Source of the DNA: Bilabrum cf. latius | Lineage: Eukaryota | DNA length: 64,000 nucleotides | Reading direction: 5' to 3' | Assembly (NCBI GenBank): GCA_965178125.1 | Contig: OZ237740.1 | Location: 992,001 to 1,056,000 of the forward strand | Shown: piece by piece, positions 1-64,000 of the stretch | How positions within the stretch are numbered: the stretch's first letter is position 1 | How the letters are laid out: the number at the start of each line of letters is the position of its first letter | Translations under genes and position numbers: made by a program | The notes under the pieces: generated by a model | Told to the model about the DNA's origin: nothing | Seen by the model: the letters and a program-made list of their open reading frames with translations, nothing else | The model's database searches: none

Positions 1-2793
1 GCGGCTCGTAGGGGTGACGCAATGGGGCCCGGCGTGCTGCAGCAGAGCAACTGGGGCGGAGACTTCGACCAGGACTCCACGGACGACGACGGGCCCGCCA
101 CCGATGAGCTGGCGGCCGCGCTTGCTGCTGCCCAGGGCAGCATGGGGGGCGGGCCTGTGCCTGTGCAGCGCAGTACCGGCGTCTTGGGTGATGCTCCTGC
201 GCCGGGCCAGAGGGAGTTTGCGTCGATGCGTGCAGTGTCCACGGTTGCAGCTCAGCTCATGCAGTCGGGTGCCAGGGCAGCGGCGGGTGTATCTGACGCC
301 AGGCAGCGCCACTTTGAAGCTGCATCCATCGGTGCCCTTGAGCGGGTTGGCGTGGTGGAGGCAGGGGATGCGGAGAGCAAGGAGGATACTGCCTCACGTC
401 AGGCGAAGAAGGAGCTCTTGTCCAAAGCCGCCGCGTTCATCGCAGCAGCCGACGAGCCCACAGAGCTGCAGGAGAGGCACGAGTACCGGCACGGGCTGGG
501 GAGCGGGAGACAGTGCTCTGGGCTTGGCCTTTGCGCTGAGGATGGGAGCTGTCGATGCTAGCCAGGGTATGGTGGGGACAGCTGCCAGCTTCGCCAGGTC
601 AAGCACGGCGTTTGCAGCGCGGCGCCCGAGCCGCTGGCGAGCAATATGTTTGAGCTTGCGCTGGACAAGGTCGCGCAGAAGAAGAAGGCCAACGCGTAGG
701 AATCGAAGGCCGGGAACGGCACCGCGGCTGCTCTGCAGGCAAGGGGGTCGGTGGCGCAGCGCAAGGACGAGGACGATGATGAGCCTCTCAGGCTAGTGTG
801 TCGTTGCGGTCTTGTGCCAGCACAGAAAGCTGCGTTCCCAGGGCAGCGATACACAGGGCCATCGTGTGACAAGCTCTCCTGTCCCAAGGATTGCAGCGGG
901 CGCGGCTCTTGCGGAGAGCACGGGCAGTGCCTGTGCCCGCCTGGATGGACGGGTGACGCTTGTGACAAGCCGTCGTGCGTGGACATGTGCGGCGGCCGCG
1001 GCAAGTGCATTGTAAAGCGTGTGCCCCTCGACGAAGTGCCGGAGGGCGCCGTGACGGCCCGCCCTCTCCGGGAGCTCCTGACGTCGGCTGACCGGGCCGC
1101 CGCTGGCGATGCAGCAGCGGCGATAGGCAGGCGATCGTCCGCCCTCGGCGAGACGCTCGGCAGCACAGCGGCAGCCAAGCAAGAAGATGCGCCCAAGGTG
1201 GGTGCAATCCTCGCCAACCACCAGGAATAGCCAACGGAAGGGAGGCCCAAGCTCGCTGCGATCGTCAGCGGTAGTGCGCAGTCGAGAGCAGAGCATAAGA
1301 AGCTGCAGCAGAGCAAACCGAACGCGGGCGCGGTTTTGGCGGGAGCGGGCGGGACCAAGGGATCGCCGAAGGCAGGCGCGGTTCTAGCCGGCACTTCCAA
1401 GAAACGGAGCAACAAGGCGGGTGCCGAGGCCTCGAAGACGGAGACCGCCTTGCTGCAGCGCAGCAGCTCGGTCTCAAGGCAGCGCAGCAAGGTGCAGGCG
1501 AGAAGCTACGGGAGGCTGAGGGCGTCCCATTCGGGTCGGCACGGAGCACAGCCTGCTGCAGGCGCCGGTCGCGACCCGGCCGAGATCGTATCCGATGCGA
1601 CCTCTGGAAGCAGGCAGGTCTCGCATGAGCAGCACGCCCGCAAGGCCTCTGCTGGAGTGTCGGCAACGAAGCAGCCTTTCAAGAAGGAGGACACTGTGGT
1701 TGCAGCATTCTGCGAGTGCGAGGCGGGGTACGCTGGCGCAGGCTGCGGCACGAAGGTGTGTCCAGTGGCCAACTGCAGCGGCCACGGGAAGTGCGACGAG
1801 GCGACCGGCACGTGCAAGTGCACCGGCCGGTGGTACGGCGCCGCGTGCGATAAGCACCGGGATAGGCAGTGCCCGGGTGCGTGCGGGGCCAAGCTTCACA
1901 GAGGCATGTGCCACGACGGCACGTGCTACTGCGCCAAGGGCTTCACCGGCCCATCATGCAGCAGCGTTCTGTGCCCGTCATCTTGTAGCGGGAACGGCGT
2001 GTGCAACATGACGACCGGTGCCTGCCAGTGCAACTCTGGGTGGGGTGGCGAAGCCTGCAGCAAGCGCACATGCCCTGTGGGCATGCCGCCCCCGCGGTAC
2101 AGGACGTCTGCGAACGTGACAGGCGCGGGGTCCAAGCCGCGCCCACCTCCGTGCTCGGGTGTGGGCGAGTGCGTGGATGGGCAATGCCACTGCCCTGCTC
2201 CCTACATCGGGCACGACTGTTCCCTGCGAGTGCTGGCCGTCAAGCCCTCGAAACCCAACGAAGCGATGCATCCCACCGTGCGGGCCGAGAAGACCGAGGC
2301 TCTCCGCATCGCCAACGAGTCGGTCGGAGCCGGGACCCACGACCCTAGCCCCAGCCAGCAGTCGGTCCACGGGAGCGCCGCGGACATCTTCGGATCTGAG
2401 CCGAAGGTGTCTCTGTCTCTCGGGGACTCGGGGCATCGAGACGTGCAAAATTCGTCCGCAGAGAATGAAAAGTAGGTGCAGCCCAAGAACGTGACGGAAA
2501 AGCCGTCTGCCGGTGGTGACGCAGCGGTGACCAACGGGGTAGTGGCCGGCAGCGAAGCAGCGCAGGGTGGCGAAGGAGAGAAGTCCTAGGCTGGCCTTGA
2601 AGGTGCTGGCACTGATGAAGACGATGCAAGGGCACTGGCGCGAGCCAAGGCCCAGCAGCACGTGGCATCGTCGATTGGGTCGTGGCTGACGGGATTCCGG
2701 AGAGGCAATCGCACTGCAGGCAACGAAACCGCCGTGCCTGTGGATCGGCGGCATTACAGCGCTACTGGGCCGATTGCGACCCTGTTCTTTTGA
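1..2793 (+). CDS. Tenascin/teneurin-like EGF-repeat protein (5' partial)
   Basis: ORFs 22-561, 751-1230 and 1336-2475 share a frame and are separated only by TAG (559, 697, 1228, 2473, 2587). The TAG at 559 lies inside an EGF repeat (CRC-Q-PGYGGDSC). Many tenascin-type EGF repeats (e.g. CSGHGKCDEATGTCKCTGRWYGAAC). First TGA at 2791-2793; frame open from base 1. Confidence 0.85.
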
Positions 2794-2963
2794 TTTGATC
2801 GTTTGTTAGACGAAAGCATATTCATCCATGCAACCGCGTGATGGGTGGGGTTTCCACCGGGGGATCTTCCCCGCAAGCAACTAAAATCCACACGCACATA
2901 ACCTGTCTGGACAACCTCGGCAGATGGATCCCTGGCCATCACACATAACCTTGCTCTGGGCCT

Positions 2964-4379
2964 TCAAGAATTCCCGCTGGACAGGACAATCATCGTGACG
3001 GCGCCAATGGCAAGCGCGAAGTTGGCGCACAGCAGCAGGTAGTTCCGGGTCCCCGAAATCTCACCGAAAAGGAATACGCCCCACAATGACGCAACCATGC
3101 CAGGGCCCAAACAGACGAGCGGGAAGCTCTCCGGGTAAGACAGGTTCTCGTTCGCAACGAACCACGCCGCCTGCGCAACCGCCCACAGAATCCCGCTCGA
3201 CACGGCCGGCGCGGTCGTCTACGGGAAGATCCTGGGCTTGTTGCAGGTCGCGACGCAGTAGATGAGGAAGTACACGAGCGACGTGAGCCAAATGCCGAGG
3301 AACTAGGAGAGGATGTAATCCGAGAGCGTGGCAGAGTCATCGACCCAGCGGTGCTGCTTGGCCTTGTGCCCGGCGTCGTTGGGGTGGTCGTGGATCCATG
3401 CGGATTTGTTGGCGTTGTACTGGGGCGGGTCGAAGCAGGAACCGTACAGGAGCCCCGAGGCCAGTGACATGACGATCCCCAGGATCCGCTGCACGGTCTT
3501 TGGGAGTGCATCGGTCACGAAGGACTCGTCCTGGCCTGCCGGGCCCTGCAGCTGCTGGACCTCTTTGGCGGCCTGCACTTCCAGCGTGCCAGGGGCAGCC
3601 GCTCCGTTGATGGCGCCCGTCTCCGCGGCCTGCCCGCCATACAGATCTCCATTGCCCTGCCCGAGACCGGAGTGGTCGATGGACGACGCCCCGCCGATGG
3701 AATCGATGATGGCCCCGGATCCTGCCCCGTCCCAGGACTGCACTCCCAGCAGGCTCTGCTCCTTGCCGTCGCCGCCCGCCCCTGCCTTCTTTTTGTCCTC
3801 CTCCTCGGACGATTCGGCCTTGCCCCCCGCGGTGTTGGACTCCACTAGCGAAGCCACCATGATGGACAACACAGCCACGGCGATGCCGGCACTGGACAGC
3901 CCGGGCTTGGCAGGCTCCTGAGCGTCGAGGCCAAACAGGCCAAACCTGCCGCTGAAGTAGCCGCACAGCAGGTTTGCGCTGCCCCAAATGACGAGACCGA
4001 GGGCCAGTCCAATGGTGCGCACGATGGGCACCACCATGATATTCCCTGTGCACCACAGGAATCCGCCTAGCATCGCGAAGGGGACGACCACAGGAGGCTG
4101 GTGGTCCGTGTAGTACTGATAGATGAACACGAATATGCCCACCATAAGCGTTCCGGTGCACTGAAAGAACTGGAACGCCATGCCGTCGCCCGTCGGGAAC
4201 ATCTTAGTGGGAAGGAAACTGCGGTACGAGTACGCGTGAGGCCGCATGGGCGCAAGCGACTGGGGTGGCAGCTTGAGCGATGCTTGACGCTTGCAGTCCA
4301 GTATTTGTCTGTCTCACTTGGATCCAAAGAATACCGTTGCAATTAAACAAGCCACATACCCTAACGCAACGTTCACCAT
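2964..4379 (-). CDS. TMEM144: Transmembrane protein 144 (DMT-superfamily sugar-transporter-like); exons 4379-4318, 4218-2964
   Basis: Splicing GTGAG...CGCAG intron 4317-4219 restores GYVACLIATVFFGSNFLPTKMFPTGDGMAFQ. Also MLGGFLWCTGN, GLALGLVIWG and AWFVAN...SFPLV..GPG motifs. In-frame TAG at 3303 and 3219; TGA at 2964. Confidence 0.9.
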
Positions 4380-6957: not shown

Positions 6958-7935
6958 TCAGGACACTACGCATCCGCAGAGCCAGCCCTTGCATGCGAGG
7001 TACGTGTCGGGCCTCTCCTCGAGCAGCTCCCTTCTCTCCGCCCTCAATCGGCTGATCTCTTCGCGGAGGGCGACTCGCTCCACGTCATAGGTCCGCACGA
7101 GGGCCTCGAGCTCGGCGTTCGCGGCCCGCACCCTCGCTAGGTCGAGCTGGTGCCTTCGCCTGCGCCTGCATGCCCACTGGATCATGCGGCAGGCCTGCTG
7201 GGCGGGGACTGGGATGACCTCGTCCAGCAAGGGGTTGTTCTCCGAGATGTCCATTTCTGTGAGTTTGTGGCAGTCCGCCACTTCGGCGGGGAGGTCCCTG
7301 AGGTCGTTGCGGGCAGCCGTCACGACACGCAGCTCGGGGAGGCGGAACAGCGAGGCGGGCAGCTGCTTGAGGCGGTTGCCGTCGACGTACAGCTGTTCCA
7401 TGAGGCGAAGCTCGCCAATTTCCGTTGGGAGCTCTCGCAATCGATTGTCTTGCAGTCGTAAAATGCGTATGCGTGAGCATTGGCTGAGCTCTGGCGGCAA
7501 GTACTCCAAACGATTGGATTGGAACGCCAGCTCGCTGCGATGCCAAACAGGAAGCACTGCGCCAGATAACAGCGCTACGTCGAGACTCTGAGCGTCATTC
7601 ATTGCGTATCCAGAGCTCGTCTTACCGAAGCAGTTTGAGGGAGCCTATTGCCTTGGGAAGAACCGAAATGTTATTAAATGAGCAGGTTAGCTTTAACGTA
7701 ACTGCGTGGTAGTCAAACACTCTCTCGTCCAGCGTGACCCACCCGCTATGACTTAAATCAAGATGTCCCTGCGAAACCGTGCAGCTCGCTGACCAGTTAC
7801 CGATGGGTAGCCAGGTTGACCAGTTGGGTGCATTCCGTTGAAAAAGTGTGCGCAGGCCATCTGCACATGCACAACACTCTTAGCTACGCTTACCTCCTCA
7901 TCAGGGGCTGTGCTTTCATTGGCAACTACCTCCAT
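6958..7935 (-). CDS. Leucine-rich-repeat protein with C-terminal coiled coil; exons 7935-7894, 7768-7626, 7534-6958
   Basis: LxxLxLxxNxLxxLP repeats. Two GTAAG...CGCAG introns (7893-7769, 7625-7535) give continuous MEVVANESTAPDEE|GHLDLSHSGW...LKLLR|ELAFQSNRLEYLP. TGA at 6958. Confidence 0.85.
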
Positions 7936-8131
7936 GTGTGTCAGGGGTAGGCGAGAGTACCACCTGGTGGCTATACGGCCAAAAGAAATCCGAACGCATC
8001 AGCAACTCATTGGCGCGGCGCCAGTCACGGTGGTTCCGCTGCAACTCGCGCAAGAGTCAAAGTGCACCCGTGCTTTCGAGTAGCGCCGAGCAGCGATCCA
8101 AACGCACCGCGGTTTTGTTTTTATTCCTACA

Positions 8132-10435
8132 ATGGACAGCCATCCTCTCGATTCCGGCGAAGCTAAGTCCCGCAGCAAGTTGGAAGCAGGCTCAGGCCAG
8201 CCGCCGAACGGCACAGCAGCTGCACCGCAAGATGACGACAGAACACAGCCAGACAGCACAAATCAGTCAGCAGTGGCCCAAGGCCAAGACAAGTAGCTGC
8301 AATAGGGTACGGTGGATGCTACTTCGGACGGGACCCTGGCTCTTGTTGCTGGCAAGCAGCCAGAGTTGCGTGCGGAAGCTTCTGATGGAACTCCAGGCGG
8401 AGAAATTCGGGGAAACGGTACGTCAGAGGCTCAAGACATGCTAGAGTAGGCGTCTGCGGACGTAAGGCGGTATGCGACGCTTGCTGTGGAGGCCACTGGC
8501 CACAGCGCCGAGCGGTCAGCAGCAGCTGCGCAGGTACAGACTGAAAACGAGGCCTTGAAAACGAGACTGGCCCACCTGCAGACCCGCATCATGCAGTTGG
8601 AGACGCAGTCGTTGTCAAGCCCGGACCGCAGCAAGAGCCCCAAGCACTTGGACGCGCTTCATGCTGTGAGACGCGCTTCTACCAATCCCATTCCGCCGCC
8701 TGCGTCTGATCCCATCGTGCACTGCTGCTCACTTTCTTTCCTTCCCATGCAAAGTTCACACGCGCCGCAGACCGCCACCCGGCAGCTGGAAGCCATAGAG
8801 GCGTAGCAGTCTCTCATCGCCGACCTGGAGCAGGAGCGAGACGAGGCGCAGAGGCAGAGGGACGAGGCAGCCAGGCAGAGGGAAGAACTCAGGGCCAGAA
8901 TGGCCGCGGCTGCGGCAGCGCACGCCAGGGAGAAGACAGAGCTGGCCAGGAAGGCGCGTGCGGGCGCGGAGGACGGCGGTGCCGGCATTGAGGCAATGCA
9001 GGCGTGCATCGACGAGCTGACGGGCACGCTGGAGACCATGCACGGCGAGCTGGACGCGGCTGCCAAGAGGGCGGCTGCGGAGCGGGAGCGAGCAAACGAC
9101 CTGCAGCGGCAGGTGGAGCGGCTCGAGGGTGTGACGAGTGACCTGTCGGCCACGCAGGAGCTCCTCGAGAGGAGCAGGAGGGAGGCTGCGGCCGCCAGGC
9201 GGGACGCCGAGGAGCTCCGGGCCAGGGTCAGGCAGGCCTCGCAGTCCGCCGCGGACGCGCAGGCGGAGTCTGCAGCAACTGCGGGGGAACTGGGCAGCGC
9301 GCGGTCAACCCTCTCTGCGATTCGGGCGCAGCTGCGGCAGGCCCACGCCACTGGTGCAACGGCCCAGCAGGCCGCCAACCAGATCTACGTGGCGCTCGAG
9401 TCTGCCAGGGCAAGAGACGCTGCCATGCGGGCGGCGGCAGAGGCTGCTGCGGGCCTGCGGTCCGCGGCGGCGAGGGATGCAGCAGCCGGGTCCGGGGCTG
9501 GTGGAGCCCTGGCGGTGCCGGCGCTAGAGAACGGAAACGGGTCTGGCGGGAGCAGCTCCTCTGGCAGGGCGGAGGAGGGTAAGGAGGGGGAAGGTGGGGA
9601 GAGTGGGAGGGCGCTCGTGCCGTCGAGGGGGACACCGGTCGCTGCAATGAGGGGGAGTGGGGCATCGGGCGGCGGGTTCCAAGGGGCGAGCAGCATGGGT
9701 GGGGGCTCGCCGGCAGAGGGGCCGCCAGCCGATGCCGCTGCGCTTCGGGCGGCGGTGCGGGCCGCGTTTGCGGGCGCGGCCGCATCCGATGTCCGGCTGC
9801 AGGAGGCAGAGGGCAGGTGCGGGCAGCTGCAGGCGCGGGTGCACCGGCTGGAGGAGGAGCTCGATGACTCGAAGAGGTAGCACGCGCAGGCTGTGGCCGC
9901 GCAGCGAGGCCTGCAACGACAGGTGGATGACATGCGATGGAAAGCCACCATCGACAGGCGGTTCGGGAGCGTCGATCCCGACGTGTTCCGCGACGCTGCC
10001 GGCGCCGGCGCTGGTGCCAGCGGCGGGATTCAGCTAGCAGCAGGCGGTCATGGCCAGGGAACACCACACGGGATGGGAGGGGCGGAGGCTTCAATCGGTG
10101 GCATGCGGCGGCCCTCGGAAGTCGCGGCGGAGGAGCCGCCGGCCATGCGGGGGCCGAGCGGTGGGCTGGCGGCGGACGGCGCGGAAAGCTGGGGACAGGG
10201 GGCCAGCAACACCGCGGGGGGACTCCCAGGAACGCCGTATGGAGCTAGGTTTGCCGACGCGGCCTTGTCGTCGTCTGGACCTTCCTTTGCGGAGAGCGGC
10301 GGCGGGAGGGGTGTTCCTGCTGGCAGCGAGGGCCCACCGCAGATGCTCGGCTCGCTGCACGGGGTGGTGTTTCGGTCCAAGGTGGGACAAAGGGCCGCTG
10401 CGCTGGCGGCCGCGTCTCCGCGGACAATGAGGTAA
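8132..10435 (+). CDS. Long coiled-coil protein of unknown function; probable intron 8666-8770
   Basis: One frame from ATG 8132 through ORFs 8486, 8900 and 9893, broken only by five TAGs. Heptad-rich E/A/R/Q sequence. GTGAG...CGCAG 105-nt in-frame intron candidate. Ends TAA 10433-10435. Confidence 0.75.
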
Positions 10436-14500: not shown

Positions 14501-14923
14501 AGCCTTTCTGCCGCGGAGGAAGAGCTCCTCAAGAGCGTGATGGAGGGCCGGCCCGTGGAGCCCGAGAGCAAGGGCAAGGGCAGCGGCAAGGCTAGCGGTG
14601 CCAGCGCGATGGCGGGGGATGAGAGCGACGACACGGACGACGAGGACGAAGCTTTCGGCAGCGCGGCGACACCCAAGCCCGTGGGCAGGGCAGGGGCCGG
14701 AAGTGCTCCCGCTGGCGTGTCGGTGGGGCGAGGGGGGCCGCGCGGAGCTCCCATGGGACGCAACCTGACCCCGGAGGAGGCCTTCTTGCTCGGCCGGCAG
14801 AGGAGACAGGCCAGAGCGGGTGCGGGTGTGGCCCAGCGGCCACCGGCCAGCGGTGCCTCGTCTGCGAGGCATGAGGCAATGCTGCGGGGTGCGGGCGAAG
14901 CGGGCGCGGTGATGCGGGATTGA
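11571..14923 (+). CDS. MCMBP: Mini-chromosome maintenance complex-binding protein; exons 11571-11813, 11945-14923
   Basis: LRPGQLVRFRGMVQD, VVEVIGIY, LVPRLQV, GGDSLAAEFLLLNLISRV, PMKD...LAGALQL motifs. Intron GTGAG 11814 to CGCAG 11944. TAG at 12971 and 13283; TGA 14921. Confidence 0.9.
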
Positions 14924-17568: not shown

Positions 17569-17922
17569 GGTGCGAGAAGGGCGACTAAATTAACCCAGAA
17601 GCAACGGTTGCTTCTGGTCCAAAGAATTAAGAATGGTTCGCTACTCGCGGTTAACCTTGCAGAAAGTAGGGCCACAATGTCACTGCTGCAGAAGAGGCAA
17701 CCAATCGAAACGGATTTGGTCCAAGTAATGATCCATTGTTATTCCGCGGGTCACAGTCATCACACACGGGTGCCAGTGGCCACAAGCGGGACGCCGAGCT
17801 TGTGCTGGGTTGTTAGATTGCCGCGCGCCCACGGGTGCGCATACTATAGTGCGCGAAGCTTTTCACGCCTGACCACTGCCCAGGAAGACCAGGCAATGGT
17901 CCAGACTCGCAGTCGCCACTTC

Positions 17923-23381: not shown

Positions 23382-23527
23382 GGCTGCGCACGGCTGCTTG
23401 TCGAAGGGTGCAAGGAGTATTGCCGTGCCCAAATCTGCCCAAATTGCACGTTACTACCACATACAAAATCAGTTGCAGAGAACCCATTTGCACCCACCAA
23501 ACAGCACCTCCTGCGGGAATTTTCCCC

Positions 23528-29362
<5,835 letters not shown>

Positions 29363-32675: not shown

Positions 32676-32784
32676 GACGGAGCGATGCCGCGGCGCCGAC
32701 CACTGCGTGATTTTCATTGCGAGCATACACATAATGCTTACGCTATCGGAGCGCCGCCCCCTTGAGACAATTATTGTACATACC

Positions 32785-47005: not shown

Positions 47006-47663
47006 GCCGGCAGAATGGACTTGAAACTGCTTATTTTCGGCTGGATATGTGATGGCTCGGAGCTGGAACAGCTTGCCGCAGCGCGCTGCGGCACACTAAT
47101 ACAACTCGGAGAGTCTGTCTGTCTGTTCGGCATTCTTGCAGCCAGCTGACGACTTCGTGCTGTACGCCGTTAGCGTACTTCATCTGCTGGTGGCTGTTGC
47201 GCCTGCCAGTCACCGGTATCACCCCGAAAAAATCAATGCAGGTCCCGCGGGCCGGCTAGTAGTCGGCCTGAATGCAGGTTACGCCCATTTCACCATCCGC
47301 TCAACTAGTAGCTTCGTCGAAGTATTGCTCTCCGCTTCCCATCCTGCTTCCCATCCTGGGACTCCTACGGGCAGGTGCCTGCGCCGTCACGTTGGGTCAG
47401 ATCCTGTACCCCTTCCTCATGCTCTAACCACAGGTTCTGGCCGACCCGAGATGCGACCATCTACCCTCGGTGGCCTTGTTTGCGCGCTGCTAGCCGCACA
47501 GCCTGCTGACACCCGGGTCTCTCTTGTGCCTTGCTCCATGGGCCATGCCCCCCCCCCCTGATGAGGTCACAGCCGGTTTTAATCTTCTTCTTGAAAGTTC
47601 ACAGCCGGTCGCAACCTCGTCTCTGCACACATCCACTCAAATCATAGTACCTCAAAGCTAGCC

Positions 47664-51286: not shown

Positions 51287-54091
51287 TCAGTCCATGCCGC
51301 CGCCAAAGTCATCCAGGAAATCATCAGACGCGCCCCTGGGGGCACCTCGCGCCAGCCGCTCGAAGCTGGGGTCCCCCGTGTTCCCTCCAGCAAACCCTCC
51401 CATCCCTCCTCCGTACGACCCGCCTCCCCTCCCGCCCCCCATGCTACCGTTTGCTGACATTTTCCGCATCAGCTGAGCCAGCTCTCGCTGGTCGGCGGGG
51501 CTGAGTTCGTCTCCAGGCGGGCCACCCCTCCGGCCCTTGCCACCACGTGAACCTGACAGAAGCTCGGATATCGCCGATGCCCTGCCCTTGCCTGCCAACC
51601 CGCCCGCCCCTCCGAACCCCAGCTTGCCCAGCATGCCCTCCACAGCCTTCTGCACGTCGCCTCCATTCCTGCCCTTGAGCGTCTGCCACAGCACCACCAG
51701 TCCGATCCCCACCACGATGACGGGCGTGCGCACCCAGGAGATGTCCCACGGCTCGGGAGGCGAGTACGGCAGCAAACTCTGCACGACCTCGATGCTACCA
51801 GTCGTCGCGTCCAGTACCGCGATCATAACCTCGCCGGTACCCTGCCCCCGGCTTGTCTCAGTCACCACTGCGACAGTGGGAGCCAGCCCGGTCGCCCCGC
51901 CATCTGTACCAGAAGCACCAACAACCTCCCCATTCTGCGCGATCAAGCGCGGTGGCATGGCAAGCACGGCGGATGTGTTGAACACGCGATAGGATCCGAC
52001 CCCCCTGGCCACGATAAGGAACCCAGGCACGGTGACGACTGCCGGGATGCTCCGGCCCGGCAGGGCGGGCACGCTGTGCTTGAGCACGCAACGGGCCCCC
52101 ACCCTCGAGGAGGACCTGCCGTCTCTGTGCCTGGTGTTGAAGGCGAAGACCTGTCCCTCCCTCGTCCCAGCATACACCACATGCGACGACAGCACATCCC
52201 ATGCGAGGGTGACGACTTGCCCGTCGCCGGGCACATCGCAGGTAGGGTTGTTGTACGCGCGGCGGGACACCGACAGCACGCGAATGGTCGGGCCGTGCGC
52301 CACTGCCACCGCGGCAGAGGTGCGAGCCATGGCCGTGACCGCGCCTTCAATGAACCCATTGTCGCCAGCACCGGCGGTGGGCGCTACTTGATCCGATGAT
52401 ACAGACGTGGTCGCGCCACTGCCGCTCGTCCGGGCTCCCTGCTTGGATGGCTTTGCGTGCGGCTTGCCGTCCTCGGCAGCCGAGGCGTCCTCCAGCAGGG
52501 CATCAGGACGATGGATCCTTGCCCTGATCCTGCCTGTGTTGGACAGAGCAGTCACCGAGCCGGAGCTGTCCCCCAGCAGTATAAGCTTGCTGTGACGGAA
52601 GGCAACGGACTAGACAACGGTGATGTCCTGCCTAGGATGCGAGTCATCCAGCGCCTCGGCGCCCAGCGCGCTGTCCTACGCACCATCAGCGGCATCCTCA
52701 GCAGCGTCAGGATCGACGAAGAGGTCCTTGTCGGCCGATCGCGAACCGATGCGTGCCTCCTGCAGGTCCCATTCCTCTACCGCCAAGTGGTACTGCACGA
52801 TTGCGCGGATGTAGAAGGCCACTTCGACGTCGTCCGGCCGTCTCGTGCGCATCTGTAGACCGACATCTTCCTGGTCAGCGGATGCATATGCGCTTCCAGC
52901 GCCAGATAAACTCTTGTCAGTGACAGGCTGCTGCTGCTGATCCTGCGTTCTCTCTGCCGACCCGGTGCCGCCACCGTCGAGTGGCTCCGCGGAGCCGTCG
53001 AGCTCAACCAAGTACGTGGCACCATCTCCACTGGTAGACTCGCTGCTTGCATCAGATTCATCGTTAGAGCCCCTTTCATTCCTTTCCGTGGACGCAGTCG
53101 ATCCAGCCCGGCCCTTCTCTTTCTCCTCCTCCTACTCCTTCTTCTCCTCCTACTAGCTGCTGCTGCTGCTGCTGCTGCTCTGTTTGCGCCTCCTGGCCCG
53201 CTTGCCCGATATCCGCCGGCCGTTCACCCAAGCCTGCAAATCATAGACGCGCACTACCCCCCATGAATCGGCCGCGACCACAAATGGCTACTCCCCCGTG
53301 GACACGGACAGGTGCTGCAGCTCGGGTGCCTCCTGGACGCCCTCCTGCCCCTCGTGTTCCGGGCCCTCGTCTCCTGCTGGGGTCGAGGCATCCATGGACT
53401 CGTTCCGTGCGATCCCCGGCACGCTAGCAGCGGAGAACATGCCGTCGAAGGTCGTTTCCTGCTCGTCCCAGTACTTCTCGGCCTCCTTGGCAACGAACAC
53501 GCTCAGGTCCTGCAGGACGTTCCGGCAGGTGAGGAGCCGGCCATGGATGGACACGGCGCACACGTTTCCGTTTCGCATGGCGACAATCACGACTTGGGCG
53601 ATCGGACCCCCGCTGTTTGGCTGCTGGCGCCTCGAAGCGCTGCCTCGAGGCACGAACTGCGCAAGAGCAATCCCGACAACGTCCAGGTTTGACGTCGTCG
53701 ACCTCCTGACCAGAAAGTCTGCAGCAGACCGAACCGTTGCCCTATCAATCTGCTTAGACTTTCCGCTGTCGGAGGAAGATTGGTGCGCAGGCGACCGATT
53801 CAAATGATCCAGCCATGGGGTGAGTTGCTGTTTGGCCTTTTCATCAGCCTCTCGGAGACCATCAAGAATATTTTGCGGAAGCTCCGCATCTAACTTATCC
53901 AGTAGTGCATTCCGTAAGCGCTGCAACTGTTCGGCGCGAAGTGCCAAGGCAGCCTGCGCTCCCCTCGTCGCTTCGAGCTCTGTCTCGAGCAGCTAGCCGA
54001 TAGTGTCCGTCTTCGTTTCACTTTCTCCTCCAGCCATGTTTGAAATTATGAAGGTAAGTATCAGAGCCAATGAACAGGGCAGGCGGGACAT
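51287..54091 (-). CDS. Type-I membrane protein: signal peptide, coiled coil, beta-rich (propeller-like) ectodomain, TM, Gly-rich tail
   Basis: ORFs 53993, 53288, 52676 and 51287 are in one frame, joined across seven TAGs. Signal MSRLPCSLALILTFIISNMAGG; TM TPVIVVGIGLVVLW; TGA at 51287. Confidence 0.75.
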
Positions 54092-54214
54092 AATTGGCGA
54101 TGTGTGGGCAAAAAATACAAACGTCCGCCTTCGCCCTGCAAACCGGAAAACACCCGAGACTTGCGGTGCCACAGTGAGCGCGCGGACGCGCTCCGTTCCC
54201 ACCACACAAAGCAG

Positions 54215-56200
54215 ATGGAGGAATCTTTCTCAGCTGGGCCTAAGCGAAGGTGGCGACTTTGCCGAGCTGGCACTGGCGTGCTGCGAGGCGCTGCGACATA
54301 GCGGAGACGGTACAAGACACCGAGCACTCCATCACAACCGATAGATGGTTCTGCTGCTCAAGCTCGCGGCAGAACGGACGTGCATGAAGCCAAACACAAC
54401 GACTCGCACTTTTATTCTTCCAGTGAGGCGCCCGCCAGGCGCTTGCATTCTAAGGTGGCTGAGAGAATCAACAGTAAGTTCGGGGCCCGTCAACGACCCC
54501 CGAAATCAGTAGTATCAGGGAATTTGACAGCCCGAAGCAGTGAAACTAGTAAAAGCAAGGAGTCCAAATCGTCTGGTAGCAGTGGGGAGTAGGAATACTA
54601 GAAAACTGCGCTGCAGCTCGCTGCGGCACACCTCCCGTCGTTGTACGGGCAAGCGCCGAAGGAGCAAACGAAGCCAACCCTGCCAACGGTGAGAAAACGG
54701 CTTGGAATCGGAGCATCATTGAGTCTTCATGAGGTATCGGATATCAATAGGGAACACGGGAGGATGATGTTTGGTCCGGACATGGATAACCCGGACCCTC
54801 AGTACGTGCCAAAGCTCATGAAGGAGACGGGCTATTCAAGGCGCCAGCTCTACGAACTGTTCATGCAATTCAAGGCTTTGTGTGCAATGAGTCCATCGAC
54901 AGAAGGGATCGATCGGGAGACGTTTCGAAGGGGGATTCCCGTGCTCATGGCAGAAGACCACGGCTTCGTGGAGCGCGTATACGACCTGCTGGACGAGGAC
55001 GGGTCTGGCACCATCGAGTGGGATGAGTTCATCACCGCAATGGCAAAACTCGACAAGGGAACAAGACGATAGAGGGCCAGCTTCTTGTTCGACGTGTACG
55101 ACCTGGACGGCGGGCAGACTCTGGACACGGACGAGCTTCTCGAGATGCTGCTCTTCAGCCTGCACATCAAGCCGGAGGATGCTAGCAAGCAGCTGCTCGA
55201 TTTCCTAACAGAGATGACCGAAAAGATACTCGCAGATGTTGATGTTAACCACGGTGGGGAGCTTGCCAGGCACAAAATCCTTGACTTCGTGGAGCAGCAC
55301 CCGGAGATAGAGGACGTCTCGAAGATTTTCGGGCGGGGGATGATCCCCACGTCCGGGTTCCTGGAGATGCAGCAGCTGTTACGGCATTCAGAGGGGAGAA
55401 AACGGATTCGTACATTTACGAAAGCAGTGCAGGACTCGGACCAGGAGATAGAGGCATCGCGGTCCCTCTTGAACTCGCAGCGGCCCAGCTTCCGGTTCGG
55501 AGACCACATCGCGCGGGTGGCCTCCATGCGGCTCAAGCAAGCCCGGTTCGCGGCTGATACGACCGACGACGAAAAATCAAGCAAAGAAGAATCGAGGCCC
55601 TCGACATCGCGGGAGGGCGCGTCCTCGGGAACAGGAGGAGCACAGGATCCACCCGAGGGACCCTTGGCCGCTCGCGGCTTGGGGGAGCGCAAGCCCAGCA
55701 AGAAGGCCCTCCTGCAGGCGGCTGGTCTGATGTCTCTTGGAGATATTGATGGGAAAACACCGCAGGTGCGCATATACTCGCGGCCGTCGGTCGATCCAGA
55801 ACCAAGCAAGACCCTGGGCAGGCGCAAGCTCTCCAAACAGCAGATCCTCGCCCGCAATGACCCGAGGCGGGCAAGCACCGACATCCTCATGGAAGGCTTC
55901 ATCCGGCAGTCATCGAAGACTTCCATCAAGGACGTGTTGCCCGCGGAGTTTGAGAGGCGTGACAGCAAGAGGAATCTCTCCGACATGAAGCCGCCCCCAA
56001 CTCGGCCCGGGGGACGCGCTCCTGGCACTGCGCCATCCTCGTAGGCTGACGTGCTGAAGAGCGCAGAAGGTGCCGCAGACGGTGGGATGGAAGGCATTGA
56101 AGACCTCATTGACACGGTTCTCGAGCATGACGAGGGAGTCAGTGACAGCGATTCTTCGGACGAGGAGGACCTGCCAGAGGCGACCCTCGGCGATTTGTGA
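54215..56200 (+). CDS. EF-hand calcium sensor (calcineurin-B/NCS-like) with long disordered extensions
   Basis: ETGYSRRQLYELFMQFK; EF loops DEDGSGTIEWDE and DLDGGQTLDTDE. Five TAGs, one within GTRR-Q-RASFLFDVYD. TGA 56198. Confidence 0.85.
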
Positions 56201-56304: not shown

Positions 56305-58482
56305 TCACACAGCGCCGCCTGCGGCCGCAGACTTGGCGCCGCCGCCGGCTGCCTTCTTGCCCACCGCGAGCGGCCGGTTGGCCATGTATCGCTCCACGAC
56401 TTCGTCCGTCACGCTCGCCCTGGCCTTCTAATGCTCACCGACGATCTCCTGCAGAACTTGGACGAGCCTGCCCTTGACCTCGCCCGTGAGCATCTCCCCC
56501 GCCGCGTACTTGCGCCCGATGGCCTCGAGCTCCTCGTCGTCCTCCAGGAAGAACCGCAGGTACTGGTAGGCCACGTCGATCTCTATGTCAGCACCCTTTT
56601 CTCGCTGCTCCTCAACGCTCTCCTGCCCGCCGCTGAATGCACCGCCAACCTTTTTCTTGATCTGCTTGGCCGTGTCCGTGACGTAGATCGTGGACGACTT
56701 GGACGACGCCGACATCTTGGTCTTGGGGCCCTGCAGCGAAGGGAAGAACTTGGAGTGGATCAGCGCCGGTTTCTCATACCCGAGCCGAGGCGCCACGTCC
56801 CTCGTAAGCCGGAAGTAGGGATCCTGGTCGATGGCCTGGGGGATGAGGCAGAGCATGTTCTTGGCTCCGCTCAGCGCCGTCGGGAAGGACGAGGAGAAGC
56901 TCGGCGCTGCCTGGACCGCAGGGAATCCAATGCACCCAATGTTTGTGTGGTTGTCGAACCCGAAGACTCCCCTGGCCTGGTTGAACGTGACCTTCTTCCT
57001 GATCTTGCAGATGTTGGGGTACATGTGCCCGATGTAATCCAGGTCGCTGAAGATGAACGTGCTGTCCTCCTTGAAGCCGCAAGCGATGATATCCTTGGCG
57101 TTCTCCTTGCCTAGCTCGTGGCAGTCCTCCAGCTCCAGGTCCTTGAACAGGAACTTCTCGTCGTCAGTCAGCTGGATCACCAGTGGCACCCCGAATGCTT
57201 CCTGCAGGTACTGCGTGAACTAAAAGGGGATCAGGTGCCCCATGTGCAGCGAGGACGAGGAGGGACCTCTGCCCGTGTATAGGTAGAAGGGCTCCCCACG
57301 CTCGTACCGGTTCAACAGCACGTCCAGGTCGCGATGGGAGAAGAAGAGCCCACGACGCAGGAACCGATGCGCCCGCCGGTTCGTCAGGCGCTCCACCCTG
57401 CTGATCAGGTCCTCGGTGATAGCCATGCAGCCGAACTCTCGAATCAGCTTCCCGTAGTCGACCCCTTCCTCCCCGGCGTCCACTGCCCACGGCGTGATCG
57501 TCTGCCCTCCCGATGGCTCCACCGCACCACTCTCGTCAGATGCCGGTGCCGCCGCTACTGCTGCGGCCGTGGTCGCTGCTGCTGCCGGGGCACTGCTACC
57601 AGATCCAGGTGCCTCCGGTCCCTTGCCGCTGCCTTTGGCCTTGCCCTTCGGCTTGGCAGCCGCGCCGCCACCGGCGTGCGCCGCATCAGCCCCAGCCCCA
57701 GCCCCAGCGGCCGGTCCTTTCTTCTCCTTGACTGGGGGGGCGACAAACACCTCTGCGGCTTCCTCCTTCGACATGAGACCATCTGTGGGTCCGTCTTCCA
57801 CGGCAGAAGCGCCTTCGTTCTGTGATACCGAAAGTTTTAGCTGGAGCAGCTGCTTCTTAGCCTTGAAGCTGAAGGAGACCACCTCGACCTCGCCGATGCC
57901 GCTGGTGTTCGACAGGAGTGGGTCCGCAGCCCAAACGGATGTCAAGCCAGGAAAAGAGGCAATTCGAATCGTGTCGGATTCTTTCCCAAGAAAACGGTTC
58001 TGGAAGCAATGCGGAAGCCTCCCGAAGCGGTCATCGCTATCAGCAACTGGGATGGTAGCCGCACTAATGGGCTGGCCTGCTCGCGAGTACTCGACGGCAG
58101 CCTGGATTGCCTCTCGCACATCTGATTCATTACTACCGATCTCCTGCGAAGCCAAGCTGGATGGTAGCGCAGCAATGGACGGTCCAACTGCCAGCCCGGC
58201 AGCAGCGCTTGCACTCCTAGCAGGATCTCACTTTGCTTGGAGTTGTAATCTGTAGGGTAAACTTGTCACCCTTGTCGGCTTTCACCTGCTTGATTGCTCC
58301 GACAGAAGCTACCTTTAGTGCCTTTGAGAGAATTCCCTGCGACGAGAAAGGAGGCGCGAGCAAACACAAGGGGTACGTGACATACCTTAATGGTGAAACG
58401 CATGCCGGCTTGTTCTCACATGAAGAATATGAGCAAATGTTGACTATGCCAATGACAAACCGGCTGATGCTGCTGCTGCCAT
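56305..58482 (-). CDS. WARS1: Cytosolic tryptophanyl-tRNA synthetase with N-terminal AlaX-like domain; exons 58482-58420, 58336-58232, 58143-56305
   Basis: [54 protein letters not shown] at 58444, 57220, 56428. Two GTGAG...CGCAG introns; TGA at 56305. Confidence 0.95.
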
Positions 58483-58628
58483 GACGTAATTCGCGAATGA
58501 AACAAGGCTGTGGATCAATGCAGAATGCACTCATCACACTGGCTACTGGCATTCGCCGGAGTTTCATCGAATTCATTTGCATGAAGAAACATTCATTCCC
58601 TCTGCACCAACAACTAGTGTTTTGAAAT

Positions 58629-59504
58629 ATGGCTCAAGTTTCGTCTGACTCGGCTGCAGGGCCAGTCGGCTAGCATTCCCGGCCCGATCGGCTCGACACA
58701 AAAGACTTTGTTGCAGATGGATTTCCAAGCGACTCAGGCTTTTACGATTGGCATGCTATCTTTCCAGACCTTGTGGAATCTGTTGTTCCACACATTGGTG
58801 CCATGCGAGCCGAGGCGCTGAAGCTGGGTGATGTTTGGACCCCTTGGCCGGAAACTAAGCTGTACAAGGCAGCGGAGGGTGCTCAATGGAGGGTGATGCC
58901 GTTCTGTTACACGTTTCCTTCGAATGATCCGTCTGCAACACGGTGGGTAGAGCCGGCGGCGGGCCTGTGTCCGACTATCTGGTCGGTTCTCAAATCGGTG
59001 CCGGGCGTGCGAACCGCTCTCCTCTCAAGAATGGGGCCTGGGACGAAGCTTTCGTACCACTAGGGGTGGGCAGAGCTAGCCAACCACGTTCTTAGAATTC
59101 ACGTGGGTTTGGAAATCCCAGGCAACGGCAAGCAGTGCGGTGTGGCAGTGGACGACGTGCACCAGCACCACTAGCAGGGTGGCCTGCTGTGCTTTGATGA
59201 TTCGCGAAAACACATGGCATACAACACGACTGGAAAAGACAGGTACGTGCTCATTTTCGATATCGCACGGCCGTCCTACGTCCCGGGCGGCGTCGCGGTG
59301 CTGGGCAGAACGGATGAATTGGACGCGTTCATCGACTACTTTGAGGCCGGGATGCGAGCGGGTGCCTCGGCTCCAGCAAAATCACATGCCGTGGGGGCTG
59401 TTGATACGAAAGAAGCCAGCAAAGACCGTTCGTGCAGCGCAGCGTCGGGGTCCGAGGCGGTTGAAGCTTCTGACCGCCTAGCGGCCGAGCCCAAACTCTC
59501 CTGA
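58629..59504 (+). CDS. Aspartyl/asparaginyl beta-hydroxylase-family 2OG-Fe(II) dioxygenase
   Basis: CPT...RTALLSRMGPGTKLSYH-Q-GW...LRIHVGLEIP...FDDSRKHMAYN...RYVLIFDI.RP. TAG at 58671, 59061, 59172; TGA 59502. Confidence 0.88.
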
Positions 59505-59587
59505 TTGATCACTCCCACTACACGATCAGGTGAATACTCAAAATCTTGAATTCAATTTAGTATAGCGATAGCCCGACCGGCATGTAT

Positions 59588-60326: not shown

Positions 60327-63300
60327 TCATTGCCTCCCTTCCCCCCACCGCGCCCTGATCCACCGCAACTCTCCCCTCTGCGATGGCCTCTTCTCCCCCT
60401 TGGCTCGGAAGGACCCGTCCTCCACCGGCCTGTCCCCCCTGTCCTCGTGCAGCCCCTCGAACCGGTCCTTCCCCATCTCGCCCTCTTCCTCGCCCCCACT
60501 GGCATGGGCAGACTCTGAATCGGAGCCATCGCGCCCAGCCCTGTCGGTTTGATTGTCCACGGGCCTAGCTGCATCAGATGCATCGCCTGGCTTGGCCGAG
60601 CCAGCACCTGCACCAGACGCAGACCCGTCGGTAGTCTAGGAACCGATCTCGCCTTTGGTCTCACCACCGGGGATCTGTGCCCCCTCTGATTCTCCTGTAC
60701 TTTTAGTTGTGTCTTCCCCATTTGCGGTACCTGCTCCTGCCCCACTTGCACTTGTCCCTGCTCTTGCTCTTTGCGATGCCGGCGCACCGCCCGCAGGCCC
60801 GGCTACTGCTCCGATGGCATCCTCAAGGCTCGGAGCAAGCCCGAAGTGGCTCAAAAGCATCGAAAGAGCAAAGCTCAGAAGCATCGTGGCGTCGTCGATC
60901 GCCAGCCGCCATCTGCTCTCGAACGCTGCCCAGGCCCCGTCCCGCCGAACGGCGGCCAGGACGCCGCTGCTGTCCTCGGTCTTGGGGAGCAGCGGCGCTT
61001 CGAGCGACTCGCTCAGCGCGTCCAGTTTTAAATCCCCGCGCGCATTCCTCAATACCTAGCTGGCACCCAGGACGCCCTCCACGGCCTCCTGGTCCGTTGG
61101 GAGGTTGAGCTCCGCCTTGGGACGAGCGAGACGGTGGGCAGAGTCCCGCTGCGCCTCCAGCTCCCAATCGATCACCGGAGGGTGCAATGCACTGCCGCGT
61201 GCGGCTGCCCTCTCGCATTGGGAGTGTGCGGGCTGTCCCGCTTCCTGCACGCGGTGCCGAAGACCCCCTGCGGCACCGCCCTCGCCCTCGCCCTCGCCCC
61301 CGCTGCCGCCGCTCTTCTCGCACAGCCTATCGTCGGCAGTCTCCTCCAAAGCCATGTCTAGGAGAAGCCGGACGGGACCGTCCAATTCCAGAACGCCGGG
61401 GACTTCCACCTCCTCCAGGCGACGGACAGGCTCTGGAGGCTCCAGACCCAGCTCTTGTTCCCTGGAAGCGGCGGCCTGGGTCAGCGCCCTCCCCCTCGCT
61501 GCAGCCTCGGCCATTGAGGCCAGCCTGTCACGGGTGGTGCCACCCAGCGTCTGGTTGACCGACCTCAGGATGCCGATGGACCGCAGCACGAGCAGCACGT
61601 CCCTAGGAAGTGCGCGGAAAAACGCCTTGGCCTGGTCCTCGTCCCAGCCCTCGAAGCGCTTGCGGAGCCGCTCCAGCTCCTTGATGGATAGCGCAAATCC
61701 AAGGCGGGCACCGGAAGATGCCGGCCTGTAGGTAAGTATGAGGCTTAGGACGTCGAAATAGTCCTTTGCCGTGAGCTTGGTGCGCGCGGCAAGTGGGACA
61801 ACCTCGGCTGCGGGATCGCTGTCAGGCGCAGCGTTGCCCCCGATGCCTGCACCTCTAGAAGCTCCATCGCCCGCTGCTGATGACGCGGCGCCGCCCGGCG
61901 AGTCCTCCGAAGGAGTCGCCTGGGCTTTGGCTAGGCCGTCTGTTTCTACGACACCTGCCTACGCTGCTGCAGATTCGGCAGCTTGCTGCACGTTGCCACT
62001 GCTGTCAGCAGCAGCACCCCTTCGTCCGACGCTCGCCGGTTCCTGCTCCTCTTCCTCTTCATCCTCCTCTTCATCAGTAAGCCCCATGCGCCGGCAAGCA
62101 TCGGCACCAAGCTCCATGTCGCCGTGCACGGCCGCGTACCACACGTCACACCACGCCCGTCGGAACGAAGGAGACAGCCTGCTGTACATGCCGTGGTCGA
62201 GCATCACGAGCTCGAACGGGCGGTCCACGCCACCGCGGTACATCTCCCCCGCGGCCTTCTTCGCGAACTCGCCCGCGGCCCGTGACATCTGCTGCCCGCG
62301 ATCGCCTCGACGCTTGGCTCCATCGCTCCTGCCAGATGCACGCTCTTCTCCTTCCCGCACTCGTGCGTCCGCGCCTTGCACGGCGGCATCGATGGCCTCT
62401 TTGGCCTCTTTGGCTCTCCTCTCCGCCTCTATTGCCTGCTGCCTCCAGGGCCCCTCCTCCCCGAGGGGCCGCACAAGGATGTTCCCGGGGTGAGGGTCGC
62501 AGTGCACCAGGCCTGCCTCGAACATGAGTGAGGAATAGGCAGCGATCACCCTCCGGGCCACCGTTTCGGGCCGCACGCCCCTCCTCTGCAGCTCTTGGTA
62601 GCCCTCCTTGGTGGGCTTGACCCCGCCCGCCAGCTGCATAGTGAGCACTCGGCGTGTCGTCAACCCCCAAGCCACGCCTGGCACCGCGACGGCTCCGTCC
62701 GCTGGACTAGATGTGAGCCAATCCCGCCACCCATCGGGGCCCCACCCGCGGCCACCAGCCGCATCGCTCCGCGACATCCACGAAGCAGACGGCGAAGACG
62801 ACGCCAACGACGAGGACGAGGCATCCGAGTCGTTGCCACCGCCCACGCTCGCCGCTCCGAACCGACGAGACATCGCCGCCCGGGCCCTCGCGGCGTTGTG
62901 ACCCTCCTGTGCGAAATCCAGCTCCAGCGCCAGCACCTGCTCGTAGTCGGGAAGCAGCCACTTGTAGTCGTGCTGCGGAAACAGCCAGGCAAGTGCCCCG
63001 GCGATCGCTCGCATGCCGAGGATGTCGCCCAGCGCCCGGCCGGCTAGCCCCGGATACTGGACCTTCACTGCAACCTCTTGGCCTGCGGCACGAGAGCTTG
63101 ATGAGCCACTGGCAGGCACACCGCCGTTGCGCAGCCTAGCTCGGTGCACTTGTGCCAGGGATGCCCGGCCCAGCGGCTCGGGGTCGAACGTCTCAAACAG
63201 GTCGCTGCAGTCCTCTGCACCACACCTTAGCTCTCTGCGGGCCACAGCCAGCGCCTCTGATGCCGTGATTCCCTTCGCAGCGTCGGTGAGCTCTGATAGT

Positions 63301-63848
63301 GTCTTGGTGTACTCATCTGGCAGAGCGTTCGACATGGTGCTCGCATACTGCCCTGCCTTACAGTATATCCCTCCCAGTCCTTTGCACATCCGCAGCACCC
63401 GTTTAGCAGCAGCCAAGTTCAACGCCTTTTCTTGGAGAGAGAGCGCCTCGGCTTGATCGCCGTGCCTAGATTCCATGGCGGCTCGCGCAGCTAGGAACAG
63501 GGGGTCGCGAACCAAGGCAGGTGGGAGCGGTGCGCGCTTTGGCGGTTTTTGTTTCTGCGCACGCTTACGCTTCTTGCCACTTGTGGTACTGTCCGCATCG
63601 GCGGTCGAGGCTGGTGACGTCCAGCCAGGCCCCAGCGCAACCCCAAGCCTCTCAGCATGGCTCAAAACAAGCTATCGAGCCTCTTCATCGCACAATTTCC
63701 GAGTGCTCTTGTGTTTCTAGTCGTGGAAGTAATACCCTGCCCCGACGAAAGCTGCGGTGGAACCGGCCCAGAGAAATCGCCGAGAGCCTGACCAAGCCAG
63801 CTGCAGGTTTCGCAGAACGGACTGCGGCCCAGAAGTAGATGATTCCAT
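60327..63848 (-). CDS. ABC1/UbiB atypical kinase (ADCK1/ADCK5-like) with long insertions
   Basis: GGIYCKAGQ, PLGRASLAQVHRA, VAVKVQYP, ELDFAQEG, VHCDPHPGNILV, MLDHGMY, LPRDVLLVLR..ILRSVN..LG. TAG at 63717, 63672, 61959, 61056, 60636; TGA at 60327. Confidence 0.9.
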
Positions 63849-64000
63849 GCGAATATAGCACAGAGATCGAGCTAGGTATTCTTGTTGTGACGCGGAGTTC
63901 AAATTTGAGATAGTTTTTTATTGCTGACGTGCCGTCAAACGAGAAGGAGAACAGATTATCAGTCTTGGATCATCATGCCACAGTGTGGACACACAAGCCA

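Follow-up and report, generated by a model that had tools for sequence, protein, structure and literature searches.

Which codons end proteins in the genome sampled by contig OZ237740.1? The question is raised by a 64,000-nucleotide stretch of this contig (assembly GCA_965178125.1, Bilabrum cf. latius; positions 992,001 to 1,056,000 of the forward strand), referred to as the window in the following, in which TAG recurs inside the reading frames of conserved genes. A sequence-only reading of the window had proposed that UAG stands for glutamine (Gln), uncoupled from UAA, and that this is an undescribed change in an organism that is not a ciliate. We find that expressed, conserved genes often use UAG as a sense codon, equivalent there to CAG and CAA. 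The assignment of UAG to Gln and its uncoupling from UAA are supported by four independent lines of evidence: the columns of protein family profiles, the codons of orthologs on a metagenome contig (L001), the Gln of a database protein fragment (P0008) and spliced contigs; TAA closes 3 of the 23 genes and never occurs in frame. We are thus highly confident that translation in the window's organism decodes UAG as Gln and uses just two stops, UGA in most genes and UAA in the others, a code that we take to be NCBI table 15.

The window comes from the nuclear genome of a GC-rich protist with dense genes and few introns: its housekeeping nuclear genes, spliceosomal introns and gene density identify it as part of a eukaryotic nuclear chromosome, and its G+C content is 58-67%, about 62% overall. 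With TAG treated as sense, we modelled 23 genes in 24 open reading frame (ORF) pieces on both strands. Counted from the first ATG, these models contain 105 in-frame TAG codons over 16,215 codons (107 when counted from stop to stop), and each of the 23 has at least one. The earlier estimate of about 110 TAG codons in 25 of 27 models was therefore right in essence, although only 23 models could be defined, all with TAG. Its ten named positions are all in-frame TAG codons, both on the plus strand (25061, 25232, 26270, 23840 and the tandem pair at 23705-23710) and on the minus strand (56428, 16930 and the tandem pair at 53150-53155). Likewise, its statement that no other stop lies in frame agrees with our count, as neither TAA nor TGA occurs in frame in the same 23 models.

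Across the three frame positions, TAG is found 105, 113 and 99 times, TAA 0, 31 and 59 times, and TGA 0, 211 and 281 times. TAG is thus about equally frequent inside and outside the coding frame and under no extra in-frame selection, while TAA and TGA are excluded. At gene ends the picture is complementary, with TGA closing 20 models, TAA 3 (the genes at 7820-10435, 22347-23450 and 47595-49109) and TAG none. Among Gln-type codons, TAG accounts for 15.4% (105 TAG, 465 CAG and 112 CAA). ORF length was tried as a discriminator and rejected: ORFs of 500 codons or more, which hold 19,245 nt with all three codons as stops, hold 59,355 nt with TAG as sense and 58,369 nt with TGA as sense. As ORF-length statistics alone cannot tell TAG from TGA, homology was used for decoding. 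The genes that served for it are the following.

23528..26349, plus strand: exon 1 of a DHX37/Dhr1-type DEAH helicase; 12 in-frame TAG, including 23705-23710 (tandem), 23840, 25061 (in motif Ia, TxPRRVAA), 25232 and 26270.
26785..29362, plus strand: exon 2 of the same gene; 3 in-frame TAG, terminal TGA, Pfam OB_NTP_bind and DHX37_C.
56305..58227, minus strand: cytoplasmic TrpRS; TAG at 57220-57222 (PFxFT) and 56428-56430 (EHxK), terminal TGA.
19240..22050, minus strand: fusion protein with a C-terminal FGE-sulfatase domain (FGE fusion); 5 in-frame TAG, that at 21817-21819 in FVQPxM.
32734..34458, plus strand: secreted-looking protein of unknown family, here the 9-TAG gene; 9 in-frame TAG, terminal TGA.

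To which amino acid does TAG correspond in these families? For each codon type, profile log-odds were summed over the alignment columns with an occupancy of one half or more, 2,109 in total from the four genes; the homologs comprised 5 for the 9-TAG gene, 150 representatives for DHX37 exon 1, 120 for the FGE fusion and 119 for TrpRS, to which a single near-identical fragment is added. Among the 59 sense codons with at least 5 columns, which served as controls, 58 were decoded to their standard meaning, AGT being the one missed. Over its 20 columns, TAG scores +26.5 bits for Gln, and the next residues all score below zero, with -14.9 for Glu, the runner-up, -15.5 for Arg, -18.6 for Lys and -34.8 for Ser; Leu reaches -38.8 bits in a three-gene run. 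Gln is the best residue in 1,984 of 2,000 bootstraps and in all four leave-one-gene-out runs. Averaged per column, TAG scores 1.32 bits, between CAG (2.00) and CAA (0.44), as expected of a genuine Gln codon at moderately conserved sites. The sequence-only reading had suggested such codon inference as a check and had named columns favouring another residue, such as Glu or Leu, as an outcome that would speak against Gln; the scores for both residues lie far below that for Gln.

Individual columns illustrate this. In DHX37, the residue at the TAG codon of motif Ia (TxPRRVAA, 25061) is Gln in 134 of 150 homologs and Glu in the remaining 16, that of REAxSD is Gln in 78 and that of LGxK in 54, with 27 gaps. 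The TrpRS column at EHxK (56428) has Gln in 95 of 119 sequences, and that of FVQPxM in the FGE fusion in 114 of 120. At RVFxP in DHX37, another of the named TAG codons, the column is mixed (31 Glu, 27 Gln and 23 Ala of 150). The columns also hold points against a Gln assignment: Gln is top-scoring in just 7 of the 20, and some favour other residues, such as Ile or Val at position 118 of the 9-TAG gene, Arg or Lys at position 121 of DHX37 and Asp at position 42 of the FGE fusion, while position 61 of TrpRS is divided between Met (31), Gln (27) and His (23). The variation at TAG columns is at the level that true CAG and CAA codons show, and a single site is no proof.

These columns could be taken to mean that UAG encodes not Gln but, for example, Glu, Leu, Ser, Lys or Tyr; a different amino acid is assigned to it in the rhizarian exLh, in Scotinosphaera and in some ciliates. 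Apart from the summed scores, in which Glu, Arg, Lys, Ser and Leu are all negative, and the mere 16 of 2,000 bootstraps that yield anything but Gln, this idea can be judged by orthologs. L001 is a 12,196-bp metagenome contig with a G+C content of 55.5%, found in a TrpRS scan of metagenome contigs; its TrpRS core is 86% identical to that of the window, and it is syntenic with the window for the Asp/Arg hydroxylase, TrpRS, the EF-hand protein and the gene at 51287. L001 itself has 32 in-frame TAG codons and no in-frame TAA in 3,805 codons, with TAA occurring 16 and 31 times out of frame, and its complete ORFs end in TGA in 5 of 5 cases and in TAG in none.

The four ortholog pairs were aligned, and sites were kept only where the flanking ten residues are at least 50% identical, which left 21 TAG sites. 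One of these is common to the window and L001, and 13 of the 20 unshared sites face CAG, including 5 of 7 in the gene at 51287 and the TrpRS TAG at 57220. For comparison, a CAG codon in these alignments is opposite Gln in 62% of cases and a CAA codon in 59%, so that TAG and CAG exchange at the rate of synonymous Gln codons. The remaining 7 unshared sites are a point on the other side, as they face CAC, GAG, TCA, AAG, GTC, TAT and CGC, one each; among these, GAG, AAG, TCA and TAT correspond to Glu, Lys, Ser and Tyr. Furthermore, P0008, a 291-residue TrpRS fragment that is 97-98% identical to the window's protein, has Gln at the window's TAG 56428. Taken with the profile scores, this makes a residue other than Gln extremely improbable. 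Beyond the syntenic part, ABC1 has no ortholog on L001: the ORF paired with it, a FAD-dependent oxidoreductase in Pfam (L001 341-3763, minus strand), aligned over only 50 residues at 38% identity and contributed no sites to the tally. This oxidoreductase has 7 in-frame TAG codons, including a tandem TAG-TAG, and stands where the window has ABC1, which marks a break in synteny.

Are these TAG codons translated as such? The alternatives would be editing to CAG, assembly or sequencing errors, or decay of the genes into pseudogenes. The DHX37 stretch was found in sequencing runs from several studies. We compared contigs from four runs of four studies (X1, X5, X6 and X7) with positions 15001-35000 of the window. 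Contigs of X6 and X7, which come from two studies, skip GT..AG introns, whereas those of X1 and X5, which are of DNA type, continue across them. The introns are the following.

26350..26784, plus strand: GT..AG intron of DHX37, 435 nt; joint 26346>26782 (cut +3) in X6 and X7 contigs.
29696..29786, plus strand: GT..AG intron, 91 nt; joint 29695>29787 in X6 and X7 contigs.
34845..34935, plus strand: GT..AG intron, 91 nt; joint 34844>34936 in one X6 contig only.

Across the DHX37 splice, the frame reads ...TIPGIR|YVVDAG. Other contigs are confined to single genes, namely 15009-17701 (Atg22), 19205-22150 (FGE fusion, unspliced) and 32728-34464 (9-TAG gene). Because of these spliced joints and single-gene contigs, we regard X6 and X7 as transcript assemblies. 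Of the 42 in-frame TAG codons in the compared part, 37 are represented in their contigs, 15 of them in both runs, and where the sequence-only reading had named CAG in mRNA as a counter-indication, these contigs keep TAG. The contigs of all four runs match the window with no other letters listed, spliced contigs included; transcript contigs cover both exons of DHX37, and exon 1, the FGE fusion and the 9-TAG gene each show no other letters.

Some features of these data weigh against so direct a conclusion. The RNA nature of X6 and X7 is read from their spliced joints alone; none of the runs is recorded as RNA, X6 being labelled 'RNA? (probably DNA)' and X7 'RNA?'. In addition, contigs lose rare variants, and a minority edited form is compatible with them. 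Nevertheless, as the spliced contigs keep TAG, editing to CAG or an assembly error is very unlikely. The frames are otherwise intact over 16,215 codons, and the L001 orthologs are conserved and carry TAG codons of their own at other Gln sites. With four runs from four studies in agreement, we see hardly any chance that the TAG codons are not translated as they stand. As a separate observation, positions 15001-35000 of the window are present at low depth in two runs that carry other organism labels, about 2 in X5 and 3-13 in X7, and the deepest contigs of these runs reach depths of 268-685; the window's organism may thus accompany other cultures or samples as a minor component.

Is UAA, then, still a stop? 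In a GC-rich genome, UAA might be rare enough to escape notice as a second Gln codon, and the code would be one in which UAG and UAA (UAR) both encode Gln. TAA is indeed rare overall, with 180 and 165 trinucleotides on the two strands of the 64 kb; just three genes end in TAA, the complete ORFs of L001 all end in TGA, and the absence of in-frame TAA is partly circular, as TAA and TGA were the codons used to bound the ORFs. If the three terminal TAA codons are read through, the frames gain just 9 to 28 codons before TGA, which by itself is indecisive on TAA. By our own arithmetic, however, a Gln-coding TAA that stood to TAG as CAA stands to CAG should occur in frame about 25 times in the window and about 13 times in L001, and it was observed in neither. 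The frame counts point the same way, with 0 in-frame TAA in the window versus 31 and 59 in the other frames, and 0 in the less GC-rich L001 versus 16 and 31.

Domains provide a further measure. Pfam ATG22 matches a single ORF at 1.5e-84 over profile positions 2-481 of 482, and the DHX37 gene extends over about 1,800 residues in two exons; as such long domains are unbroken, a sense role for TAA is very unlikely. No TAA was found to interrupt any Pfam domain or homolog alignment. In the BCNT gene, the domain covers profile positions 13-74 of 75 and residues 432-494 of 504, the TAA follows 10 residues downstream, and reading through it adds only 9 codons. The BCNT domain is C-terminal in its family. 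A UAR=Gln code is accordingly a highly improbable description of the window, and UAG=Gln with UAA retained as a stop is the reading that we adopt.

A last alternative is that UAG is ambiguous, read as Gln inside genes and as a stop near some 3' ends, as in codes of the Condylostoma, karyorelict or Blastocrithidia type. Context-dependent codes of this kind are documented in the accounts of PMC4967479 and 10.1101/2022.04.12.488043, and our sample of gene ends amounts to just 23 in the window and 5 in L001. Yet in this small sample TAG ends none of the 23 window genes and none of the 5 complete L001 ORFs, and TGA and TAA serve as dedicated stops. Moreover, the base following in-frame TAG (36 G, 28 C, 24 A and 17 T) is without strong bias, so that no downstream base is favoured. 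We therefore regard an ambiguous UAG as very unlikely and a dedicated Gln codon as the better account.

In which lineage did this change occur? We built two quick TrpRS trees, with support from the Shimodaira-Hasegawa-like approximate likelihood ratio test (SH-aLRT) only. The window, P0008 and L001 form one clade (SH-aLRT 100) on a long stem. The loci L002-L011 and L038, which are at most 72% identical, have no in-frame TAG in TrpRS. L002, from the neighbouring clade, has none in 344 TrpRS codons, and its TrpRS ORF (L002 969-2789) closes at TAG; it would be 15 codons longer if TAG were read as sense. Being free of TAG within the gene and ending at TAG, L002 brackets the code change, which, judging from these sequences, seems confined to the small clade of the window, P0008 and L001.

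The best named TrpRS matches are the ochrophytes Tribonema, Ectocarpus, Undaria, Chrysoparadoxa, Nannochloropsis and Ascophyllum, at 66-69% identity, and these named ochrophyte matches also have the long form of about 600 residues; no ciliate name occurs among the 120 matches listed. This fits the earlier statement that the organism is not a ciliate. In the trees, the TAG clade stands apart from the clade of named ochrophytes, and the deep forks are without support. Species names are attached only to distant homologs, namely brown algae, Platysulcus and the transcriptomes of Bolivina, Helgoeca and Didymoeca. The long single-exon genes, introns of 91-435 nt and 62% G+C are, we assume, not ciliate-like either. 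By its sequences, the organism appears to be neither a ciliate-like nor a fornicate-like candidate, and it probably has an affinity to the Stramenopiles-Alveolata-Rhizaria (SAR) group or to the stramenopiles within it.

The remaining genes of the window, with the in-frame TAG codons that enter the counts above, are as follows.

1..2793, plus strand: teneurin-type EGF-repeat protein (Pfam), 5' end beyond the window; 5 in-frame TAG.
2964..4313, minus strand: TMEM144-family transporter (Pfam); 2 in-frame TAG.
7820..10435, plus strand: coiled-coil protein; 6 in-frame TAG, terminal TAA.
11900..14923, plus strand: MCM-binding protein (Pfam MCM_bind, 1.7e-99); 2 in-frame TAG past the first ATG, terminal TGA.
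15166..17589, minus strand: Atg22-like vacuolar effluxer; 2 in-frame TAG (one at 16930-16932), terminal TGA.
22347..23450, minus strand: protein of unknown family; 5 in-frame TAG, terminal TAA.
44728..46224, plus strand: GRWD1/Rrb1-like WD40 protein (Pfam CAF1C_H4-bd and WD40); 1 in-frame TAG, terminal TGA.
47595..49109, plus strand: BCNT-domain protein; 5 in-frame TAG, terminal TAA at 49107-49109.
51287..54229, minus strand: conserved protein of unknown family with an ortholog in L001; 7 in-frame TAG, including the tandem at 53150-53155.
54074..56200, plus strand: EF-hand protein with an ortholog in L001; 5 in-frame TAG.
58626..59504, plus strand: Asp/Arg beta-hydroxylase-like protein with an ortholog in L001; 3 in-frame TAG.
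60327..63917, minus strand: ABC1/ADCK atypical kinase; 5 in-frame TAG.

Pfam assigned a family to 16 of the 23 models and left 7 proteins without one. The families comprise teneurin-type EGF, TMEM144, an MFS-like transporter, MCMBP (1.7e-99), Atg22 (1.5e-84), the FGE-sulfatase fusion, the DHX37/Dhr1 helicase, WD40, GRWD1-like, BCNT, EF-hand, TrpRS, Asp/Arg hydroxylase and ABC1; for a PDZ-like protein, the match to PF00595 is weak and under the Pfam cut-off. A PDB search found DHX37/Dhr1 at an E-value of 4e-95 and cytoplasmic TrpRS at 3e-142. Pfam thus substantiates the identities that the sequence-only reading had given to TrpRS, DHX37, MCMBP and GRWD1, and PDB does so for the first two.

Several of these proteins have features of their own. 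The TrpRS ORF encodes an N-terminal extension of about 275 residues ahead of the catalytic core, like the ochrophyte and alveolate forms of about 600 residues; its first ATG comes only at codon 151, which may be the true start, or an intron may lie upstream. In the 9-TAG gene, Pfam finds no domain, and numerous Cys, Trp and His positions are invariant. Its family is very small, with 5 homologs of 40-45% identity among 8,000 candidates scored from 5.8 billion sequences, one of them filed under the transcriptome of the choanoflagellate Helgoeca nana. The N-terminal part of the FGE fusion, about 540 residues long, is conserved and has no Pfam family. Among the matches listed for the fusion, those named by organism are mostly bacterial metagenome bins (Bryobacteraceae, Verrucomicrobiae and Terriglobia) at 38-41% identity, and the best (42-46%) are from eukaryote transcriptomes; one named match is Triparma. 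From these matches, the family may have undergone transfer between domains.

The window also contains a tandem array at 40137-41781, with 21.6 copies of a 76-bp unit at 99% identity. As 76 is not a multiple of 3, the array is open in several frames; the 719-residue ORF at 39511-41670 (minus strand) is an artefact of it, with weak and meaningless Pfam matches, and was excluded from the models. Two ORFs on the minus strand, 38061-38594 and 39511-39900, have in common a near-identical stretch of about 100 residues (IYGLRPARSQPGLRYSF...GERGVTTA), and therefore reflect a direct duplication of a few hundred bases beside the tandem array.

How might UAG have been separated from UAA? In eukaryotes, a single factor, eRF1, reads all three stops, and an efficient reassignment is for this reason expected to involve changes in its N-domain. 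The decoder would be a tRNA-Gln with the anticodon CUA, which pairs with UAG and not with UAA. A search of the window and of L001 found no tRNA gene in either, which counts against our account, and eRF1 is not encoded in the window; a search of the window for Rfam families likewise gave no matches. A tRNA-Gln(CUA) of Tetrahymena has been shown to read UAG and not UAA, as cited in PMC5304391. The single eRF1 presumably lost its affinity for UAG and kept that for UAA and UGA, as PMC5304391 proposes for Iotanema spirale, whose eRF1 is described there as having a T32G change in the GTS motif. Since TGA dominates gene ends (20 of 23 in the window and 5 of 5 in L001), UAG stops seem to have been rare already when the codon was captured.

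A code in which UAG alone stands for Gln is itself of a known type, and the known cases do not fit the window's organism. According to PMC11687900 and PMC5304391, nuclear UAG-only reassignments include an uncultured rhizarian (Leu), Iotanema spirale (Gln) and Scotinosphaera (Ser), as well as, among ciliates, Protocruzia tuzeti and several phyllopharyngeans (Gln, Leu and others). The closest parallel is the fornicate Iotanema, in which UAG encodes Gln, and UAA and UGA are stops (PMC5304391). Like the window's organism, it is a non-ciliate that reassigned UAG alone to Gln and retained UAA as a terminator, and the mechanism that PMC5304391 proposes, a tRNA-Gln(CUA) combined with a weakened contact between eRF1 and UAG, is the one that we would invoke here. 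Unlike the window's organism, whose main stop is TGA (20 of 23), Iotanema is described as an anaerobic endobiotic metamonad with UAA as the primary stop (PMC5304391). The window furthermore has a G+C content of 58-67%, encodes an ABC1/ADCK kinase and has a TrpRS that falls among SAR-type sequences, and its code must have arisen independently of that of Iotanema.

Protocruzia tuzeti and two phyllopharyngean lineages likewise read UAG as Gln and do not read UAA as Gln (PMC11687900). As that source describes it, UAG-only Gln arose in these ciliates repeatedly and recently within clades, another likeness to the window. By contrast, the best named TrpRS matches of the window are ochrophytes rather than ciliates, which are absent by name from the 120 matches listed. 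In the rhizarian exLh (UAG=Leu) and in Scotinosphaera (UAG=Ser), UAG is also uncoupled from UAA outside ciliates (PMC5304391; PMC11687900), but in the window Leu and Ser score -38.8 and -34.8 bits, compared with +26.5 for Gln. UAR=Gln codes, of the NCBI table 6 type, are reported by PMC11687900 from many ciliates, Hexamita, Streblomastix, Ulvophyceae and Amoeboaphelidium. They have in common with the window the change from stop to Gln, presumably through a mutated tRNA-Gln, and differ from it in that UAA is not sense here, with none in frame in 16,215 window and 3,805 L001 codons.

Relative to the known UAG-only cases, an independent origin is most likely. Our literature search, mainly of open full text without supplements, found no report of UAG=Gln for a stramenopile, such an alga or a GC-rich heterotroph; to this extent only can the change be called undescribed, as the sequence-only reading had it, and since the public runs are from 2025, the change may already have been described or a description may be under way. 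We consider the evidence evenly balanced on the fuller proposition, namely that this is an independent, undescribed change of UAG alone to Gln in a clade of GC-rich, aerobic protists that are not ciliates and have SAR affinity, possibly heterotrophic stramenopiles, with at least 3 members, one of them known only from a metagenome; that it took place once the clade had diverged from a sister lineage in which UAG still closes genes; and that UAG was freed by a preference for UGA and not by AT pressure.

For annotation, the consequences are immediate: standard gene callers truncate nearly all genes here, and the proteome is mis-annotated wherever the standard code is applied, as illustrated by TrpRS, which is present in the database only as the fragment P0008. 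The finding is thus of practical use for annotating this organism, and of high interest for the evolution of the genetic code. Changes of the nuclear code are uncommon in general. Those that split UAG from UAA appear, in the account of PMC11687900, to be rarer still, being limited to one rhizarian, Iotanema, Scotinosphaera and a few ciliates. A new independent case would test how one release factor drops one stop, and why UAG and UAA usually travel together. The present one is of value because it is GC-rich and prefers UGA, because close relatives with and without in-frame TAG bracket the event, and because DNA and RNA runs are public. If it holds true, the clade would offer a tractable system for understanding how eRF1 loses UAG and yet keeps UAA.

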